Position numbers and translations under genes: made by a program. 64,000 bases of DNA from an uncultured Nitrospiraceae bacterium (lineage in GTDB: Bacteria; Nitrospirota; Nitrospiria; Nitrospirales; Nitrospiraceae), in NCBI GenBank assembly GCA_963706325.1, contig CAVPLT010000002.1:128001-192000 (forward strand). Reading direction: 5' to 3'. Below the pieces are notes generated by a model that saw only the letters and a program-made list of their open reading frames with translations, ran no database searches and was not told the origin of the DNA. Positions 14,199 through 25,352 of this stretch are shown here, piece by piece (the stretch's first letter is position 1; each line of letters starts with the position of its first letter).

Positions 14199-17100
14199 TT
14201 AGGGATAGGTCGCGAGGAGTCTTTCGACGGCCTGTAGGTGTGTTTCTCCTTCCTTGGCCTTGAACTGTCGTCGACAGGCAGCACAGAGGCGGAGGCGACC
14301 GGCGATCGAACGCACGTCCCGATCTTCATTGTAAAAAAATGGACAGTCGGCAGGCCCGACACCACGGCGATGGGGCGTGAGGTCTGCCACGACCGCCGCC
14401 GCCAAGTGGGCCATCATCCGTTCGACGGTGCAGTCCTTCTCGTTCAGGTGTTCCAGCACCCCGAAGGTCGAGGCCACGAACAGCGCGTCCCGTCGCCAGA
14501 AATAGAGGTTCCTCGCCGTCCTGCTCCTGAGCGGAAAATTGATCATACACACGAGCTTGTCCACACCCAATTCCTTGGGCTTGGCCTTCAGTCGATCGTA
14601 GAGTGTTTCCGCGACGACAAATGCCTGGTTATTATCTTGTTCGCGTCGCCAGGTTCCGATCGGCGCCGGGAATGACACGGTCTCGAAGGAGTAGATGTTC
14701 TGCGCTTGCGTAAGACGATCACAAATTTCCGGCAAGTGAGGAATCATGCGATGGGCGTTCCACATGCCGATTTTGATCCGGTCTTGCATCGCGCGCCGGC
14801 GTCGCCGTACCGTGGCGGTGCGTGTTCGCTCATACTCGGCTGCCGCCCGAGGCAGACAGAGGCGCTGAGCCGGATTCCGCGCAAACACCACGGGCACGGC
14901 CCAATCGATGGCCTCTCCAGAAATCGAATAATTGACTGCCACACGTGCCTCACGGGCGGCGTCGCCGATGGTTTGGCCCATGGCTAGGGCCCAGTAGAAA
15001 TGGCGCGAAAAGGAGGTCGCCGAGACATCCAAAACCGGATACTGGTTGGCGACGACAGCCGGCACGCCACCGGCGATCAGAGCCTGAGCAACGCCGCGGC
15101 TGAAATCCTCCCGTCCCCCTCGCCCGGTCTCGCAGGCATTCAGGCAGACCAGGCGAATGCCGCGCCTGCATAGGATCTGCCGGAGGGTCGAAGAATCCAA
15201 CTCCTGCACGCCGCCATCCGCGTTCTCAAAGACGAGGTACCCGCAGTCTTCCTGCTCCCGATATTCACCATGACCGATGAAATGCAGAATATCGAACGGT
15301 TCACTGGAGGACTCAAGCGTCCGATGCAACAGCTCGGGCGTGGCATCAAGCAGGAGTTGGACTTCAGCCAGATTCGCATCAAGCAAGCGGCGGAATCCGC
15401 TACGGATAACATCAGCTTCCTCCTCAACAGAAAGTTTGGCGAGCCCCAGCGGTTGGGCGACGACCACGAGAATACGCATGGGACCGCCCCGGGCTGGAAT
15501 ACGTTCGGCGGGAATAGCGGTGAGGACATTGCGCGTGAAGTTCACTTCTTCGAGCGCAAGGAACGTCCGGCGATCGGGATCATAGACGAATTCCCAGGCT
15601 TGGTCGGCAATCCAATCGATATCCGAGGTAAAGATGAGGTTGAGCCGTTGACTCGTCTGTTCGGATCGCGCCGCATCGTAAAGTCGCCGTACTTGGCCTG
15701 GAAACAGCGCCTTGAACAAGGCTACTCCGAATTGTTGGAGATCATGCTCACCAGGCAGAGCCGGAAACTTTGGATTGCCCTGAATGTACCCCTGAATATG
15801 GTCCTGTGCGGTCTTGATCTGCTGCCATTGAACATCGCCTTTGTCGCCCCTCGATCGTGTGTGTGATGAGCCCTTCTCGGGCCGGGTCCGCAAAGTCTCC
15901 ATCACACGCGCGTTCCGGAAGGTGGCGATAAGCTCCGCTACCTGGTCATCCGGATGCGAATCGACCAGGGCAATCTGAAACACATCATCCGGTTCGGGAC
16001 TTTGAGTGAGGGAGACTGCGACGGGGAGGATTCGAGCGGCCGGCACTGCCTGGGCTGTCGCCATGGCTGGAGCCGGCGAGGACGTGGCCGCCATGCTGGG
16101 CCGCCCGTCTACAGGAACGGCGCTGCGGCGCCTACCGGACGGCAAGTCTTGCTCGATGACAATCGATGTAGCCGGATGCGACTGTCCGCGCAGGGCGCGA
16201 ACCAAAAAATCCACCGTGCCGGGATCCTCAAAGAAGTTCACGTGATTGACCGGCTTGTGCTGCGAGAGGTTCCCGCCTAATCCAAAGCAACCGACGCGAT
16301 CTCCTGGAATCGTGACCGCAGCCCCGCTCCCCGCGTCCACACGCCAGCCGCCTTCCGTCGGCACGACGAGATCGTTGGCCGACGTAAAAAATAGATCGGC
16401 CCCCGCGTCGATGATGCGCTGCAGTACGGTGGTGTCGGGCTCGAAGTTCGCGACCAGCGCCGAATAAGCTTGGTTCGAAGGGCCCGGCGACGCCTGCAAG
16501 AGGCGAATGATATCGCCCTTGTTATCCATCGAGGCCAGGCCGGGTAATCCGCCGACGATGCGATGGGCGATCCACGACAGGGCTTCACTGACGAATTCCA
16601 TGCCTGTTGTGAACGGGTTCTCGGGGAACAGCTCCAATACATTAGACAGCCAGTTGGTGTACTGAGTGACATGGTCCGGCGAAGCCAGGGGTGTCCCTTC
16701 ATTCGGACTCGCGACGAGCACGGCTCGGCCAATGACAAATCGATCGGCCAGCGGACCAAAAAGATCCCGGCGTTCAACCAGGTGGCGCAGGACCAAGCCG
16801 CCGCGCGAATGCGTGATGACGTCAAAGGTCGTCGGGCGATCGGGCAAGGCGTCGAGCAACATCCGTACATTATCCTGGGGGGTACGGCTCAGGGTGAAAT
16901 GATCGAAGCCATAGATGCGATTGCCGTATACGTCCTGCAGTTCTTCAAAGAATCCTTTGCCGTTGCTGCCCTGTGTAAGCGCCAGCCCGTGAAAGGCCGC
17001 TTTCGTGCTGGAAAACGTGCCGTGAAGAAAGAGGAGATTCCGTTCAGATGTAGTTAGCGTCTTCAGATCTGCGGCGGGCAGGTTCGGTTCTTCACCGAGT

Positions 17101-17651
17101 CCCGCGGCGGTTACGGCTAGCCACCCTTCACGTTGTTTTTTGAGTTTCCACGTTGCGGTTTCCCAGAGTAACGCAAGCTTCGAGAGGGCAAAGTCGGCGA
17201 TCTTGCCCGCGATCTTAAGGACCACGGTTTTAATAGCCGCGCTGATAAACCCGCGGCGGCCATCCGCGTCGACGAGAGGAGCCGCCGGCACGGGAATCAG
17301 AAAGCGGTAAATTCTTCGCGCGCCTCGCCGCATGCCGCGGCGAGCGGGTTCCGTCGGCATATGAAAGCGAATTGCCCCGGAGGCGTACCGTGTCATCACC
17401 ACGTATGCTTCATCGGGGCTGCCTTCCACGTCCAGGGTGAGCGGGGCCGGCGCCGCTTCGCCCCGCCGTGCCTTGGGCGTGGCCACAAGAGTCTGTTCGA
17501 CCTCCCAGCGGCTGGTTGCCGTCAGATGGGCTACGAAGGGATCCGGTGCTGCCGCTGCTGCGCGGCGCCCTGCGCGAACCGGCCCTGCAGCACGCACGTC
17601 CCATCCTTCCGCCGTCGACCAGGTGACCTTGCCTGATTTTTTCTGCGCCAT
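14199..17651 (-). CDS. CHAT (caspase-like) domain protein with N-terminal alpha/beta hydrolase
   Basis: FLHGTFSS, THSRGG, NDLVVP (lipase-like); HFIGHG and LNACETG (CHAT His/Cys dyad); Cys-containing C-terminal domain. Confidence 0.85.
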   Translation of the reverse strand: MAQKKSGKVTWSTAEGWDVRAAGPVRAGRRAAAAAPDPFVAHLTATSRWEVEQTLVATPKARRGEAAPAPLTLDVEGSPDEAYVVMTRYASGAIRFHMPTEPARRGMRRGARRIYRFLIPVPAAPLVDADGRRGFISAAIKTVVLKIAGKIADFALSKLALLWETATWKLKKQREGWLAVTAAGLGEEPNLPAADLKTLTTSERNLLFLHGTFSSTKAAFHGLALTQGSNGKGFFEELQDVYGNRIYGFDHFTLSRTPQDNVRMLLDALPDRPTTFDVITHSRGGLVLRHLVERRDLFGPLADRFVIGRAVLVASPNEGTPLASPDHVTQYTNWLSNVLELFPENPFTTGMEFVSEALSWIAHRIVGGLPGLASMDNKGDIIRLLQASPGPSNQAYSALVANFEPDTTVLQRIIDAGADLFFTSANDLVVPTEGGWRVDAGSGAAVTIPGDRVGCFGLGGNLSQHKPVNHVNFFEDPGTVDFLVRALRGQSHPATSIVIEQDLPSGRRRSAVPVDGRPSMAATSSPAPAMATAQAVPAARILPVAVSLTQSPEPDDVFQIALVDSHPDDQVAELIATFRNARVMETLRTRPEKGSSHTRSRGDKGDVQWQQIKTAQDHIQGYIQGNPKFPALPGEHDLQQFGVALFKALFPGQVRRLYDAARSEQTSQRLNLIFTSDIDWIADQAWEFVYDPDRRTFLALEEVNFTRNVLTAIPAERIPARGGPMRILVVVAQPLGLAKLSVEEEADVIRSGFRRLLDANLAEVQLLLDATPELLHRTLESSSEPFDILHFIGHGEYREQEDCGYLVFENADGGVQELDSSTLRQILCRRGIRLVCLNACETGRGGREDFSRGVAQALIAGGVPAVVANQYPVLDVSATSFSRHFYWALAMGQTIGDAAREARVAVNYSISGEAIDWAVPVVFARNPAQRLCLPRAAAEYERTRTATVRRRRRAMQDRIKIGMWNAHRMIPHLPEICDRLTQAQNIYSFETVSFPAPIGTWRREQDNNQAFVVAETLYDRLKAKPKELGVDKLVCMINFPLRSRTARNLYFWRRDALFVASTFGVLEHLNEKDCTVERMMAHLAAAVVADLTPHRRGVGPADCPFFYNEDRDVRSIAGRLRLCAACRRQFKAKEGETHLQAVERLLATYP

Positions 17652-18357: not shown

Positions 18358-19098
18358 CTATGGACATCCGCTCGCACAATTTCCGCCATGCAAAGCCTGT
18401 GTTGTGGTCATGTTCATGCGCAAGGATTCATCGACGGACAGCCGAAAATTGGTTTTGAGCGCGTCCGTGGCAAGGATCGGCCGGCCTTCGAACAATGACT
18501 GAGGTTCACTGAGAAAGGGCCCGATAGCCATGGCCTGACTGAGGCCGGCGATATGGGATTGATGAGTCTTTACGCTTTCCTGAACCGGTCCGATGAGGCT
18601 CGAAGTCCTATCGCGCGGAGTGATGATACTCTCGGGCAGAATCGTTCGTGTTTGAAGGACCTGCCTCTTTCCATTATAACTGAAAGCCGGTACCCTCATG
18701 ACAGTGATAGATTTACTAGACCCCTTGCCGACAGACCTAACCAGAGCTTGATTGATTACAGTATTCCTGCGAAATGACTGGCTCCAGCAGGTATTCCCGC
18801 TACCTATCCATTGGTTGGAACGGGTGCTTCTCAAGAGTGGTGCGGCTTCCAGAACCAAAGCAGGCAAGAGGTCTCGCTGAACGGTTAAGGTCAGCGGTAA
18901 CGAGGTATCCTTCCAACTCGTGATGCCTTCGATGGCGCCGCTGCGGGACATCTCAACTGACTGACAATCAGCCGGTGAGGCCAGAGCCGCAGGGGCGGCC
19001 AGACCCATGAGCAAGGTGACACCGACGAGTGCCGGAATGATCCGAGATACATGTTCGAGCTCACTGGGCTGCGCATGCTGTTGGAATTGAGGCGTCAT
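18358..19098 (-). CDS. Hypothetical secreted protein
   Basis: AAGGAGG RBS; hydrophobic signal ending APAALA; 246 aa. Confidence 0.6.
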   Translation of the reverse strand: MTPQFQQHAQPSELEHVSRIIPALVGVTLLMGLAAPAALASPADCQSVEMSRSGAIEGITSWKDTSLPLTLTVQRDLLPALVLEAAPLLRSTRSNQWIGSGNTCWSQSFRRNTVINQALVRSVGKGSSKSITVMRVPAFSYNGKRQVLQTRTILPESIITPRDRTSSLIGPVQESVKTHQSHIAGLSQAMAIGPFLSEPQSLFEGRPILATDALKTNFRLSVDESLRMNMTTTQALHGGNCASGCP

Positions 19099-19912: not shown

Positions 19913-22011
19913 GCAGTCCCTCCCAGGACTGGTAACCGCACCGTCACGGTGGTTCCTTTTCCTGGAGTCCCCTGGATCGAGAGATCGCCACCCCATTGTG
20001 TCGCCCGTTCCCGCATACCAAGCAGCCCTAATGAATTGGTGTTGGCCAGCGTCGAGGCGGGAATGCCCACGCCATTGTCAGCAACTTCAAAAACCAGCCA
20101 GCCGGCTGAGATGTTCAAGCGCGTGTGGATAGTGGAAGCTTGAGCATGCCGCACTACGTTGGTGAGGATCTCCTGGTAAATCCGAAAGATGGCCGTAGCC
20201 TGGGCCGGCCCGATGGGAATCGGCACCGACGGCATCGACCACTCGCATCGTATCCCAGTTCGCTTCTCGAAATCACGTGTCTGCCAGTCGAGGGCAGCCG
20301 CGAGGCCGAGTTCATCCAGCACGCTCGGCCGCAATGCGGTCGCAATCGCGCGTACGGACTGAATAGTGCCATCCAGTTGCCGCATGGCTCCCTGGATCCG
20401 CTCCAGCATCTGCGCGCGGCTGTCGGCGGCCTCGGGAAGCGACAGTCGTCTCGCCACCCAGGACAGGTCGAGTTTCAGACTCGTCATGGCTTGTCCCAAT
20501 TCATCGTGAACTTCTCGCGCAATGCGCGCTCCTTCCTCTTCTCGCGCCGAATGCAAACGTGTCATCAAGGCCCGCAACTGGTCACGAGACTGATTGAGTT
20601 GGAGTTCCACTTGTTTGCGTTGTGTCATGTCAACCATAAGCCCGAGCAATCCACAAATGGTGCCGTCCGGATCCCGTAAGGGAGCCGTCGAGAGACTGGT
20701 GTAAACGGGGGTGCCGTCCTTCCTATAGCGCACCACTTCCAAATCCGTGAAGGCTTTGTCTTCCATCACGCGTTCTCGCAGGAACCGATGCTCATTCAAC
20801 TGTTCGGGCGCCACAGTCGGAAGCGGACGCCCCAGCACCTCCTCCTCCCGCCAACCATAGATCTTTTCGGCAGCCGGATTCCACAGACGGCAGAGGCCCT
20901 CCGCATCGAGACTCACGATTCCCACCGGCGATGCGTGGACGAGGGCGGTCAGTCGGTCATTGATCTCTCTGAGCCGCTCATCCATGGATTTCCGATCGGT
21001 GATATCCATCCAGATCCCAAGCGTCTCCTTGGGTGATCCGTCGGCAGCCCTTTGAAGTACTGCCTGGTCAAGAAACCAGCGATAGGTGCCATCGGCGACC
21101 TGCCAACGATATTCACTATTAAGCGTGCCAGTCTCAGGGAGACGCTGGAATTCTCGAAACACGCGCTCCCGGTCGTCTGGATGGAGGCGAGCCGCCCATA
21201 ACCCGGGATCTGTGAAAAATGAGGCGCCGAGAAAGCCGCTGACCTTTTCGATGTTCTGACTGACCCAGAGGGCCGCAAAATCCTCCGATGCTTTAGCAGA
21301 ATAGATGACGATCGGCAGCGCGCGCATGATCAAAGTCTCTTTCGCGAGGCTTTCCTGAAGGGCTTGCTCCGTGCGACGACGACCCGCGAGTCCTACGCGA
21401 TAGACCGTTCCCATGATCAACACGATGCCCACGGCAAGGATGCTGCCGGTTTCGGCCACTGTAATCGTCGATTGCGCAATGGCGGTCGTCCGATGGGAAT
21501 GCTCCAACAGCTGGACCTTCTCTGCCTCCCGTAGGTCGGTGATCAGAGCGCGGATCCGTTCCATGTCCTCCTGACCTTTGCCGGAGAGTAGAACATCTCT
21601 TGCCGCGGAAAATCCTCGAGATCGACGCAACTCGATCGAGTCGGCGGCGAATGCGATGCGGGATGTGACGAGACCGATGAGGGTTTCGATCTGGGGGCGC
21701 AGTTCAGGCTCGTGGGCGGTGAGGGTTTTGACATGGGCCAACCGTTCTTGAATCTTGTCTGTGGCTCGCTGGTAGGGTTCCAGAAAGGAGCTCTCGCCGG
21801 TGATGATGTAGCCTCGTTGCCCGGTTTCGATTTCTTCGACGAGAGAGAGAATGCGCTGGAGACTCCCTCTAACCTCTCGGCTGTGGACCACCTGCGCCGA
21901 ACTGGCCATAAACTCGGTCGAGCTGCGGTATGCCACGAAGCCGATCCCCAGCAGGAGAACCAACATGAGGGCGATGGCAATTTCCGTTTTTCTCTCAAGA
22001 CTTAGATGCAT
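19909..22011 (-). CDS. CHASE3-PAS-PAS sensor histidine kinase (HisKA_3)
   Basis: ETGQRGYIITG (CHASE3), two PAS domains, IAREVHDELGQ H-box, DNGVG and GLLGMRER. Confidence 0.95.
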   Translation of the reverse strand: MHLSLERKTEIAIALMLVLLLGIGFVAYRSSTEFMASSAQVVHSREVRGSLQRILSLVEEIETGQRGYIITGESSFLEPYQRATDKIQERLAHVKTLTAHEPELRPQIETLIGLVTSRIAFAADSIELRRSRGFSAARDVLLSGKGQEDMERIRALITDLREAEKVQLLEHSHRTTAIAQSTITVAETGSILAVGIVLIMGTVYRVGLAGRRRTEQALQESLAKETLIMRALPIVIYSAKASEDFAALWVSQNIEKVSGFLGASFFTDPGLWAARLHPDDRERVFREFQRLPETGTLNSEYRWQVADGTYRWFLDQAVLQRAADGSPKETLGIWMDITDRKSMDERLREINDRLTALVHASPVGIVSLDAEGLCRLWNPAAEKIYGWREEEVLGRPLPTVAPEQLNEHRFLRERVMEDKAFTDLEVVRYRKDGTPVYTSLSTAPLRDPDGTICGLLGLMVDMTQRKQVELQLNQSRDQLRALMTRLHSAREEEGARIAREVHDELGQAMTSLKLDLSWVARRLSLPEAADSRAQMLERIQGAMRQLDGTIQSVRAIATALRPSVLDELGLAAALDWQTRDFEKRTGIRCEWSMPSVPIPIGPAQATAIFRIYQEILTNVVRHAQASTIHTRLNISAGWLVFEVADNGVGIPASTLANTNSLGLLGMRERATQWGGDLSIQGTPGKGTTVTVRLPVLGGTA

Positions 22012-22864
22012 TGCGTCCGGCTGCAGCGAGCCGTCTCAAACCTCACCGATTGCAAGCAATGGCACGGCGGGACGCCATGCTATCACGCCTCTTGCACGCG
22101 ATGGGATCACTCCCTTGCGGTCAGGACGTTGACCGGCGAAATGCGGATGCGAGTCACTGAGGAGCAGAACCATGAACTCGAGACCATCATCATAGATCAA
22201 AAGCAGTCCTTTCTCCGATGCAGTCCAATGGAAGTGCATTCGGACTGGATGACGATGAGATGCTAGTGAGTTCTCCTTCCGATCGCTATCAGCATTCAAG
22301 AACTTCGTCTGTGGGACGCAGCCTACAAGGCCGTGGTCGAAGGCCTGATGGGACCGATGGCCCTTCTGCATCGTGTCCGGCGCTCGTTGCGCGAGAACGC
22401 AGTCATCAGAATGGAGAGGGGCGTCGAGGTTACGCTAGACTGCGAGCGAATCGTACACATAGATCGCGCTCATGTCTAGAACGTCGCTCGGCTTCATGGG
22501 CGGCGAGACAAGGGGGGACATTCGGTCGTTGATTCGATGACCTTTCAGCGGGTGGGCACAGGGAGTTCTCCTTCTTTGAGTTCAAGAGCGTCCTCATCGG
22601 CGTCCGGCGGGAGGCGACATGGGTCAACCCTGAGAGTCCACGTGTTCAGGTCGGCTTGATCCACCGTCAGAACAGGCGAAAGAGGAAACATCAGAAAAGG
22701 ATGGGAACATCTTTCACATGCAATGCGCGAACGCGGTCGTCCAGAGCTGAGAATGAAGCGTTCCGTGATGAAAGAGCCGAAGGCTGTGGAGTGTCCGGAG
22801 AACGGGGAATAACCAGCGACGAATCAGCAACGGGCGATGGGTATTGGTCAGCCGAACCGATGTA

Positions 22865-23974
22865 TCAGAGGGATACAGTACCAATAGGGTCCGCGCTAGT
22901 GAGCTTTTGAGCGCTCGCGTCTTCCTGATCGCAGCTCTGCATCATCATTTGACGGACCTCCGTCGGCGAAAAACGCGCGGCAGCGGCGTTGACCTGTTGA
23001 TACCAATTGAGGACCGGCTCATCGTCATTGGCTACGGCCTGTTCGTAGACAAGACGGCACAGCGTCAGGAACGCGGCATAATCACGAGACAGCCATGATG
23101 CGGCCATGTCCGGGAGGCGTTGGTTCTTGATATTGCCCCAAGACCAGGCGCGAGGAAATCCGTACTGCAGGGGGGAGACGGCTCCGCTGGTTTCGAGGAC
23201 TAGGGGGGCAAGGACATCTGCCACGGTCTGCTCTCCGCAGACTGATGCCTCTCGGACGAAGACCCGTGTCGGATGTTCGAGCAAAGCGGGAACCGTCGCG
23301 AGATCGATCTGCACATCCATGAGGTCTTGATACAACTCTCGAATTCGAACCGCCTCGAACACGGCTGCTGCGTTCTCCTCGCCATCGGGCAATGACCCAT
23401 CTAGTGTGCGAGTGGCCCTGCCGACCGGTTCAAGCGGGTGCAGTTGCAGGAGTTTCGCGCCTTGTTCCGCTGCGAATTGCGCGACCCAGTCCAGCTCATG
23501 GATGTTGTGAAACGTGAGTGTAAAGATGAAGCCGAATGGAACGCCTGAGCGACGCAACCCTTCCAACCGCTCGCACATGTCCTCAAACGCTCGCGGGGAA
23601 CCGCGCATGAAATTGTGCGAATCGGGAACACCATCGAGGCTGATTGCGACGAGGTCGCAATCAGCCGCTAAGATGTCCAGCTGCCGTTGATCGAGCAACA
23701 TCCCGTTAGTCGTGACAGTGGTGACCAGACCCGCAACATGCGCGCAGTGAAGCAGCCTGCCGAGCGCAGGATACAAGAGCGGTTCGCCACCGGACACCGA
23801 TATGACCCTGTACCCGATTGTGGCCGCATCAGCCACGACGCCACGCAGCAGCTCGATGTCCAGCTGTTCCGTCACCGCCGGTCCGGAGTCGGAATAACAA
23901 TGCAGACACTGCAGATTGCAGCGTCTGCCGGGGTGCACTTGCAACGTGGGGAATTTTCCAGCCGGCCCTTGCAT
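22865..23974 (-). CDS. Radical SAM protein (PqqE/SkfB-like core, no intact SPASM domain)
   Basis: CNLQCLHC (CxxxCxxC), SGGEP, TTNG, ISLDG; start at ATG 23974, 7 bp after the upstream stop. Confidence 0.9.
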   Translation of the reverse strand: MQGPAGKFPTLQVHPGRRCNLQCLHCYSDSGPAVTEQLDIELLRGVVADAATIGYRVISVSGGEPLLYPALGRLLHCAHVAGLVTTVTTNGMLLDQRQLDILAADCDLVAISLDGVPDSHNFMRGSPRAFEDMCERLEGLRRSGVPFGFIFTLTFHNIHELDWVAQFAAEQGAKLLQLHPLEPVGRATRTLDGSLPDGEENAAAVFEAVRIRELYQDLMDVQIDLATVPALLEHPTRVFVREASVCGEQTVADVLAPLVLETSGAVSPLQYGFPRAWSWGNIKNQRLPDMAASWLSRDYAAFLTLCRLVYEQAVANDDEPVLNWYQQVNAAAARFSPTEVRQMMMQSCDQEDASAQKLTSADPIGTVSL

Positions 23975-23981
23975 GAAATGT

Positions 23982-24257
23982 CTATCCTCGTAACGTGAAC
24001 TTGATCTGAGCGATGTTAGGACGCGGAGTGCCATGGATCAAGATATTCAGGTCGCGCAATTCCTTCAACTTCGTCAAGGCCGCCACGTTGGCTTTGAAGT
24101 TCGCCACGCCGGTTTGCACGGTTCCGGTGATCACGTCCGGATGGGGAGTGCCAAGCTCGTGCCAATCGATGATCTTGACACCCTTCAGTTTACTCTTGAT
24201 CGCTGTTGCTGCCGTTCCGATCTTCGCTGACCCACGCCCGCTTGGTTGCTTCGGCAT
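23982..24257 (-). CDS. 91-aa basic protein with duplicated GTPxP motif; putative radical SAM substrate or partner
   Basis: AAGGAGG RBS before ATG 24257; DWHELGTPHPD and LIHGTPRPN repeats. Confidence 0.75.
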   Translation of the reverse strand: MPKQPSGRGSAKIGTAATAIKSKLKGVKIIDWHELGTPHPDVITGTVQTGVANFKANVAALTKLKELRDLNILIHGTPRPNIAQIKFTLRG

Positions 24258-24572
24258 CAGAAACCTCCTTGTGTGTGTAATACCTGTCCACGCTGATCCG
24301 CTTGTCAGCGGTCCGAGGCACCATACCTCTTCCTGATTCAAACGACAAGTATTTCCGCTCACCAGCAGAAGGAGTGACGGAACACTCCTTAGGGGGGCGA
24401 CGTTCTCATATACGTAATCATAACATCGGTGATGGCGTTCGCGGCGGTTTGTCCCGCCTCGCTCATGCAAAAAAATGCGGCATCGTATAGCCACACTCGT
24501 AAAACAAGGAGGCAAGAGATCAGCAGTGGACGGGTTGGTTGAATCAGAGACCGACGAACCGACGCAGATCGA

Positions 24573-25352
24573 TTACGGCTCGATCTGCTTACCCCAATGC
24601 TTCAAGAACGGAGCAATGGTATCGATTGGAATTGGGAAGATGGTGGTGGAGTTTTTTTCTGCCGCAATCTCAACCAACGTCTGCAGATAGCGGAGCTGCA
24701 GCGCAGCAGGGTTACGACTGATGACGTCGGCGGCGTCCGCCAGGCGCCGGGAGGCTTCGAATTCACCTTCGGCATGGATGACCTTCGCGCGACGTTCGCG
24801 CTCCGCTTCCGCTTGACGCGCGATGGCTCGTTGCATTTCCTGCGGCAGGTCCACGTTCTTCACTTCCACCGCGCTGACCTTGATTCCCCAGGGCTCCGTC
24901 TGTTGATCGATGATGCGTTGAAGGTCGGCGTTGATCTGTTCCCGTTTCGAGAGCAAATCGTCGAGCTGGCTCTGTCCGAGCACGCTGCGAAGCGTTGTCT
25001 GCGACATCATGGAGGTGGCGTAGAGGTAGTCTTCGACTTGGATGATGGCCCGCTCGGGATCCACCACCCGGAAATAGATGACGGCGTTCACCTTGACGGT
25101 GACGTTGTCTCTCGTGATGACGTCCTGATGCGGCACGTCCATCGTCACAGTTCGCAAGCTGACGCGCACAAGCTTGTCGATGAACGGGATGATGACCACG
25201 ACACCGGGACCGTTCCCACCGACGAGTCCACGGGCCAGCCTGCCCCATCGGAAGATCACGCCCCGTTCGTATTCCCGGAGGACGTTGAACCCCATCAGGA
25301 AGAGCACCATCACGAGAAACAGGAGCGCAAACGGACTCGCGAGCGGACCCAT
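24573..25352 (-). CDS. SPFH/stomatin (slipin) family protein
   Basis: [37 protein letters not shown]. Confidence 0.95.

Follow-up and report, generated by a model that had tools for sequence, protein, structure and literature searches.

The two genes described here lie on the minus strand of the window (the whole 64,000-nucleotide stretch of DNA that was analysed), where a 91-aa ORF, P0001 (24257-23982), is followed after a 7-bp gap (23975-23981) by a 369-aa radical SAM ORF, P0002 (23974-22865). This is the two-gene unit of the original prediction, and its coordinates, gap and strong ribosome-binding site were all confirmed. The features of the locus are:

22865..23974, minus strand: radical SAM gene P0002, 369 aa; partial barrel with a tail derived from SPASM/Twitch, no cluster ligands and no RRE
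23982..24257, minus strand: gene of the partner or candidate substrate P0001, 91 aa; no Cys, no Tyr, pI 10.6
24264..24270, minus strand: ribosome-binding site AAGGAGG, 6 nt ahead of the small-gene ATG; GGAGG is invariant in the upstream alignment
24320..24348, minus strand: promoter-like element TTGTCG-17 nt-TATGGT with sigma-70-type spacing; putative function
24473..24498, minus strand: terminator-like hairpin and T run closing the upstream SPFH/NfeD unit; a boundary outside the system

A promoter-like block (TTG-x3, 17 nt, TA-x3-T) is kept in 13 of 13 aligned Nitrospira upstream regions. Beyond this block and the ribosome-binding site the flanks differ between the regions, which makes a promoter of the unit's own probable; the element itself matches the consensus at 8 of 12 positions and falls short of the cut-off of the promoter scan. 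Within the last codons of the small gene a GAGGA precedes the radical SAM start, which suggests that the two genes may be translationally coupled. The neighbours are SPFH (gene end 24573) and NfeD genes upstream and a histidine kinase gene downstream after about 850 bp, and as predicted no RRE/PqqD, protease or exporter adjoins the pair. Terminator-like sites numbered 3 against 1.9 expected, a count that is weak alone, and Rfam gave no match at E ≤ 1 over 21900-24700. Contigs from RNA runs of four studies match portions of the small gene with 99-100% identity, at a depth of 2-3 that may be of DNA origin; these runs were found using this DNA stretch and were left out of the evidence.

In the closest relative (L006, 5250-6699, compared with window 22011-22865), two additional genes, presumably a tyrosinase and its small cofactor protein, lie between the radical SAM gene and the histidine kinase, and the window keeps only a 72-bp match to them at 22537-22608. 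Elsewhere in the window, a 1150-aa protein with DUF7379 (lipase-like) and CHAT domains (14199-17651, minus strand), unrelated to the pair, is a possible caspase-like protease module, and a 246-aa ORF (18358-19098, minus strand) has a signal-peptide-like start and no Pfam match.

The small partner protein

The small gene is a real protein gene, since comparison with 11 relatives gives a dN/dS of about 0.05-0.15, as expected under purifying selection (variable columns by codon position, 29/8/77). No NCBIfam or Pfam family matched the partner proteins, and inspection of P0001 revealed no hydrophobic signal peptide. A single-sequence search with P0001 returned 93 relatives among 96 candidates, a profile search returned 51 partner representatives, of which 3 were long chance matches, and the ESM Atlas holds unnamed partner clusters at 0.95-0.96, commonest in Cyanobacteriota and Bacteroidota. 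Longer, fused forms were absent among 8000 candidates, which is weak evidence, and an HMM search of P0001's own genome found no second partner. Conservation was counted over 87 partners below 70% identity (115 were collected; 10 leader-type, tandem or truncated ones were omitted), and the conserved motif is G-x-P-x-P-D/E, present at two sites:

24219..24236, minus strand: RGSxKL motif, residues 8-13 (R in 70, G in 81, S in 78, K in 59 and L in 66 of 87)
24135..24164, minus strand: site 1, W32-x3-G36-x-P38-x-P40-D41, loop of hairpin 1 (W in 69, G in 85, P in 81, D/E in 71 of 87)
24015..24044, minus strand: site 2, I72-L-I-H-G76-x-P78-x-P80-N81, loop of hairpin 2 (G in 87, P in 76, second P in 65, D/E in 75 of 87)

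The original prediction had placed GTP at the core of both segments, with His or Trp just before it. Among the 87 partners, the position after Gly is Ile, Gln, Thr, Lys, Leu or Val (Gln in 46 and Thr in 15 at site 1, Ile in 52 and Thr in 17 at site 2), and the position before it is Tyr, Asn, Arg, Leu, Lys, His and others. Because both positions vary, the GTP and the His of the Nitrospira partner are strain features, and the proposed Thr core has to be given up. Trp32 is indeed conserved, but His33 recurs in 18 of 87 partners and His75 in 2. The family consensus at site 2 reads (I/V)-(F/L)-(P/I)-x-G-(I/T)-P-x-P-D/E, in short I/V-F-P-x-G-I-P-x-P-D. The N-terminus, predicted to be merely disordered, instead carries RGSxKL, which runs into a predicted helix; the motif occurs too in the double-glycine-leader peptide of locus L074 and, by analogy with leaders, is probably an element for recognition by the enzyme.

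That the two segments are related, as first proposed, was confirmed by running hhalign with the first half of the family alignment against the second (probability 87, score 24.5, E 4e-6), the best score among 30 column-shuffled alignments being 11.1. The AlphaFold model of P0001 (pLDDT 81) has helix 9-23, strands 27-35 and 42-50, helix 51-62 and strands 67-75 and 82-90, a predicted (alpha-beta-beta)x2, permuted ferredoxin-like fold in which G36-D41 and G76-N81 form the two hairpin loops. Fold searches gave generic permuted ferredoxin-like matches only (PilO, EpsL and designed proteins, with Z at most 8.3 and a best Foldseek E of 3.4e-3), from which no function can be read.

Some partner subfamilies have site 1 replaced by Cys motifs (W/L/R-C-G-T/N, T-C-P-T or C-I-Y-G-I-C) and keep site 2 (L098, L101, L112, L110, L133, L103, L104, L108, L119, L135 and L156), and several of the enzymes paired with them are without Cys306. 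A 102-aa partner variant (P0274, P0277, P0278, P0280) bears the JGI name 'NADH:ubiquinone oxidoreductase subunit B-like', which we rejected as a weak-similarity transfer; it probably stems from a chance likeness of G-Q-P-P-R-P-E to the NuoB motif, which we take to be G-C-P-P-R-P-E.

The radical SAM enzyme

P0002 has the features of the radical SAM superfamily, namely the predicted CxxxCxxC, a GGEP motif and a partial barrel, and scores 77 bits on PF04055 against a cut-off of 29.5. Its elements are:

23897..23920, minus strand: CxxxCxxC (C19, C23, C26), the SAM-cluster motif
23129..23203, minus strand: degenerate SPASM beta-hairpin to GNI, residues 258-282, with L269 in place of the ligand Cys
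23057..23059, minus strand: Cys306, a Cys in 111/115 and 64/74 enzymes of two sets; candidate H-atom donor or left-over ligand
23000..23008, minus strand: N-W-Y motif of the enzyme tail, residues 323-325, conserved

The C-terminal part has a SPASM/Twitch-type fold (beta-hairpin, GN, helix) with a feature match to SPASM clusters of 0.95, and Pfam SPASM has no match in P0002 at E ≤ 1. Aligning the enzyme profile to anSME residues 265-318 puts L269 on the Cys of 'DG.V.PC', and none of 115 enzyme homologues is listed with a Cys there, which bears out the suspected loss of the hairpin ligand; the family hairpin motif is P-x-(Q/G)-(Y/H)-G-F. The three or four conserved Cys that would ligate an auxiliary cluster are absent, C306 alone being conserved outside the SAM motif, while C246 is a Cys in 55/115 and 15/74 enzymes and C348 is unconserved. 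With so few conserved Cys, P0002 likely has no auxiliary cluster, as the original prediction thought possible, and a single [4Fe-4S] SAM cluster. Other conserved polar residues are Q12, H14, Q177, H179, E182, R186, D224, Q270 and Y/H271. No RRE/PqqD is fused to P0002, whose barrel begins at residue 10, and the genome's one PqqD match lies on another contig beside another radical SAM gene.

The closest structure to the P0002 model (pLDDT 94) is SkfB (Z 26.5, rmsd 3.3, 278 aligned, residues 6-335), followed by SuiB (Z 24.5, rmsd 3.2, 291 aligned) and by BlsE, anSME, viperins, PqqE and EpeE (Z 20-23.5; EpeE 20.8). Every NCBIfam score of P0002 is far below cut-off, and no family came near its cut-off for 99 homologues (best E-values 1e-31 to 1e-32). 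The JGI name 'Fe-coproporphyrin III synthase' for the enzyme was rejected as a weak-similarity transfer. PADLOC gave core-domain viperin matches only for the enzyme and none for the partner, and a complex prediction with enzyme residues 1-345 and the partner scored 0.00, which speaks neither way.

A sister clade of radical SAM enzymes (L132, 5563-7089; L136, 974-2484; L137, 1465-3015), scoring 175-190 bits, separates with a support of 100 in a quick tree of 65 rows from which 9 near-identical Nitrospira rows had been dropped. These enzymes carry H-P-C-x4-C-x4-C-H-R in the loop that holds T236/R241/C246 in P0002 and have the same C306 (the LCR Cys), a combination that could possibly bind an atypical auxiliary cluster. 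The simplest reading, on a midpoint-rooted tree that sets no direction of change, would be that a four-Cys site was lost in our enzyme family, one of its Cys remaining. In the sister clade the partner is a different protein of 110-120 aa that contains a G-x-x-G/W-P-x-P stretch. The L132 locus sits on a Mycolicibacterium plasmid, with MazF, Fic and RES genes around it.

Co-occurrence and precursor-like partners

Co-occurrence of the enzyme with a small motif gene, which the original prediction had offered as its test, was found by one regular expression: a Gly-x-Pro-motif ORF lies directly upstream at 78 of 85 enzyme loci and at 0 of 34 other radical SAM loci, the expression having been written after the family was seen and the loci being partly related, with some near-duplicates. 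The 85 are those with at least 380 bp upstream among 96 loci with an enzyme score of 200 bits or more, a set without the genome of P0002 and without one duplicate, and the ORF had to end no more than 450 bp from the enzyme start. Of the seven loci without a match, four (L054, L072, L110 and L133) have an evident partner by eye or HMM, bringing the count to 82/85; at the other three (L087, L114 and L117) no upstream partner was found. In the reverse direction, 13 relatives of the small gene had a match and the enzyme follows in 11 of the 11 loci examined. Flanking genes vary between loci, and no third gene family recurs with the unit among 97 neighbour ORFs of 28 selected loci. The small gene and the radical SAM gene are thus a dedicated, conserved unit.

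The closest named relatives are Nitrospira (76-94% identity), and even within the genus the distribution is patchy, with the unit in 13 of 36 genomes and in 3 of 201 genomes of a phylum sample. Samples centred on single genomes gave 4/301 around an acidobacterial genome (one of the four being sister clade), 1/301 around a Bacteroidales genome (sister clade), and 1/401 and 1/301 around Rhodospirillales and Actinoplanes genomes, both of these last enzymes standing beside two-site partners (2/2). The family is large and is spread thinly over scattered bacteria of several phyla. At E ≤ 1e-20, 1718 of 8000 scored proteins fall into it, a figure that includes more distant radical SAM proteins, and a search of viral contigs with two patterns found 6 distant radical SAM fragments and no family member.

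At five loci (L056, L063, L067, L072 and L074) the upstream gene encodes a short double-glycine-leader peptide with the same motif as its core, F-P-x-G-I-P at four of them and W-W-R-F-G-M-P at one. A further precursor (L068, 3-350), whose start lies beyond the contig end, consists of at least four tandem repeats of 21-22 aa, each with F-P-(Y/H)-G-I-P-N-P-E. C39 peptidase genes flank two of the five leader loci (L056 and L072) and none of the 23 other loci scanned, so that double-glycine leader and C39 features meet in these two relatives. At the Nitrospira locus a double-glycine leader with a C39-ABC exporter is absent, the genome's one C39 match lying on another contig. In the quick tree the leader-peptide enzymes nest among folded-partner enzymes at two places. 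Because one type of enzyme accompanies the motif in three settings (folded protein, cleavable-leader peptide and tandem-repeat array), the motif looks like a precursor core, and we consider it very likely that P0001 is the substrate of P0002. With almost the same confidence, we place the substrate relation at its Gly-x-Pro loops; either motif type occurs as a leader-peptide core, so both loops are likely targets, as was first suggested.

Proposed chemistry and relation to known systems

We propose that the pair forms a stand-alone, two-gene post-translational modification system in which the small protein would be the substrate of the radical SAM enzyme. By analogy, the enzyme would dock on the N-terminal RGSxKL helix, with no RRE required, much as a leader helix activates two-component spliceases according to part of PMC11414181. 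SAM would then be cleaved at the single [4Fe-4S] cluster and a backbone hydrogen abstracted in each G-x-P-x-P-D loop, and a residue next to the invariant Gly (L35/H75 or T37/T77) would be epimerised at C-alpha in a redox-neutral reaction, with Cys306 giving the hydrogen back as Cys372 does in PoyD. Cys372 of PoyD and Cys223 of EpeE, both treated in part of PMC8326336, are the single-Cys parallels to Cys306. The product, of 9.7 kDa, would stay folded and probably cytoplasmic with both loops modified, and in other lineages the same loop would sit behind a double-glycine leader and be exported as a peptide.

Cys-assisted epimerisation next to Gly is our first choice because the targets have nothing but backbone features in common, an auxiliary cluster is not expected and one Cys is kept as in PoyD; near-invariant Gly and Pro amid widely varying flanking side chains likewise suit backbone chemistry. 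It is a tentative choice, made by analogy. The invariant residue is an achiral Gly, itself not epimerisable, and Cys306 is replaced in 10 of 74 enzymes, which together with the three additional Cys of the sister clade means that it may be a mere left-over ligand. The partner contains a Cys for 7 of 9 enzymes without C306 and for 9 of 56 with it, a weak hint whose nominal p of 0.0004 is overstated because there were about four independent losses. Also tentative is the broader reading that these single-cluster radical SAM enzymes are a class not described before, with a new Gly/Pro-centred backbone reaction on an uncut, unexported, folded cytoplasmic protein, re-used for exported peptides; the reaction may staple Gly to Pro, splice without need of Tyr or leave a persistent glycyl radical.

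An oxidative reaction on the same substrate, in which a radical at the Gly C-alpha or Pro ring ends in desaturation or in a crosslink such as Gly-Pro or one from Gly to residue -3 or -4 (-2 Da at each site, the SAM cluster taking the electron), is a close rival that we rate as somewhat less likely. The near-invariance of Gly and of the Pro at +2, the common leader-peptide core aromatic-x-x-G-(I/M)-P, the conserved W32 (69/87) and the likeness of fold to the crosslinking maturases SkfB and SuiB all fit it, but auxiliary clusters are essential for PqqE/SuiB-type crosslinking according to part of PMC8326336, and their ligands are missing here. At position -3 of site 2, 27 of 87 partners, P0001 included, have Leu or Ile in place of Phe, so a ring crosslink, one of the options originally offered, cannot be general: it fits site 2 poorly, many partners, Nitrospira ones among them, having no aromatic residue there.

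As a further close rival, slightly less likely still, the backbone of the same substrate would be cleaved, spliced or rearranged at x-Gly by a Tyr-independent, splicease-like reaction, or left with a persistent glycyl radical. The Gly is invariant, and Tyr-Gly, the commonest or second-commonest pair (Tyr in 25/87 at site 2 and 17/87 at site 1), recalls the XYG splice site described in part of PMC11414181. P0001, however, has no Tyr, 62 of 87 partners have none before the site-2 Gly, the tail of PlpX is a full Cys-rich SPASM according to part of the PMC11414181 supplement, and P0002 scores 55.6 bits on TIGR04103, whose cut-off is 725; for a glycyl radical, the PFL activase is the poorer structural match (Z 17.5, residues 3-223 only). 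That the small protein serves the enzyme as activator, chaperone or carrier without being its substrate, and that the enzyme acts on a small molecule or another protein, is improbable: the partner is predicted to be a compact domain, and the enzyme's best NCBIfam scores are to heme d1/AhbC-type small-molecule enzymes (94 bits against cut-offs of 500 or more), but the double-glycine-leader and tandem versions fit precursors and not subunits, no third gene recurs, and the HMM found no second motif-bearing substrate in the genome.

Radical SAM peptide maturases are a main source of new enzyme chemistry, and to our knowledge nearly all characterised maturases of this fold need auxiliary clusters, an RRE, or a reactive Cys, Trp or Tyr in the substrate. 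The present family has the same fold without the cluster ligands or the RRE, its target is conserved at Gly and Pro only, and two genes are enough to test it directly in E. coli. Should the enzyme indeed act on a short loop within a folded protein and ask little of the side chains, it might serve as a tool for protein engineering, and if the family is a new class it would form a bridge between protein post-translational modification and RiPP biosynthesis.

Like PoyD/OspD/AvpD/PlpD and EpeE/YydG, P0002 would act as a radical SAM enzyme on a ribosomal peptide backbone with side-chain tolerance. EpeE, however, keeps a Twitch cluster, and its H donor presumably stands next to the hairpin Cys, where P0002 has no Cys; its structural match to P0002 is also lower than that of SkfB (Z 20.8 vs 26.5). 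Unlike the PoyD family (TIGR04517), which has no match at P0002 at E ≤ 10, our pair has no nitrile-hydratase/Nif11 leader, and its likely substrate, unlike that of PoyD or EpeE, is a folded protein with two loops. What it has in common with these epimerases is one conserved protein Cys that could be the H donor (PMC8326336, in part). SkfB, SuiB and PqqE maturases offer the closest fold, the best PDB sequence match (E 8e-14) and a SPASM hairpin homologous to the P0002 tail, but here there is no RRE, auxiliary-cluster ligand, partner Cys, exporter or protease. Compared with glycyl-radical activating enzymes, the match to PFL-AE falls below that to SkfB, and the target motif differs from what we take to be the GRE loop.

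With the spliceotide systems (type II RhaXA; type I PlpXY, TIGR04103) the unit shares the pairing of enzyme and precursor genes, a leader helix in place of an RRE, Gly at the modified site and tolerance of protein-sized substrates, as far as the available part of PMC11414181 describes them. Spliceases require XYG and a Cys-rich SPASM (same part of PMC11414181), whereas P0001 is without Tyr and YG occurs in only 25/87 partners at site 2, a comparison made via XYG, TIGR04103 and PlpX, with splicease types III-V outside its direct reach. CrpC/CrpA of Methanococcus voltae is likewise a RiPP-like modification of a protein and not of a short peptide, but part of PMC13692751 gives CrpC three clusters and thioethers on a Cys-rich substrate, in contrast to one cluster and no substrate Cys here. 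Searches of the full-text literature outside subscription journals, where much of this field is published, found no description of the family, so that an earlier mention in a mining table is possible, and its motif strings were not found in the supplements of PMC11414181, PMC9062424 and PMC11953309. Together with NCBIfam and TIGR04517, this upholds the initial view that no characterised RiPP class matches. The putative enzyme-substrate pair is real, dedicated and widespread, and apparently still uncharacterised; judged by sequence features, it resembles a minimal radical SAM-RiPP system but falls outside the spliceotides, the PoyD epimerases and the cluster-bearing SPASM/Twitch enzymes.
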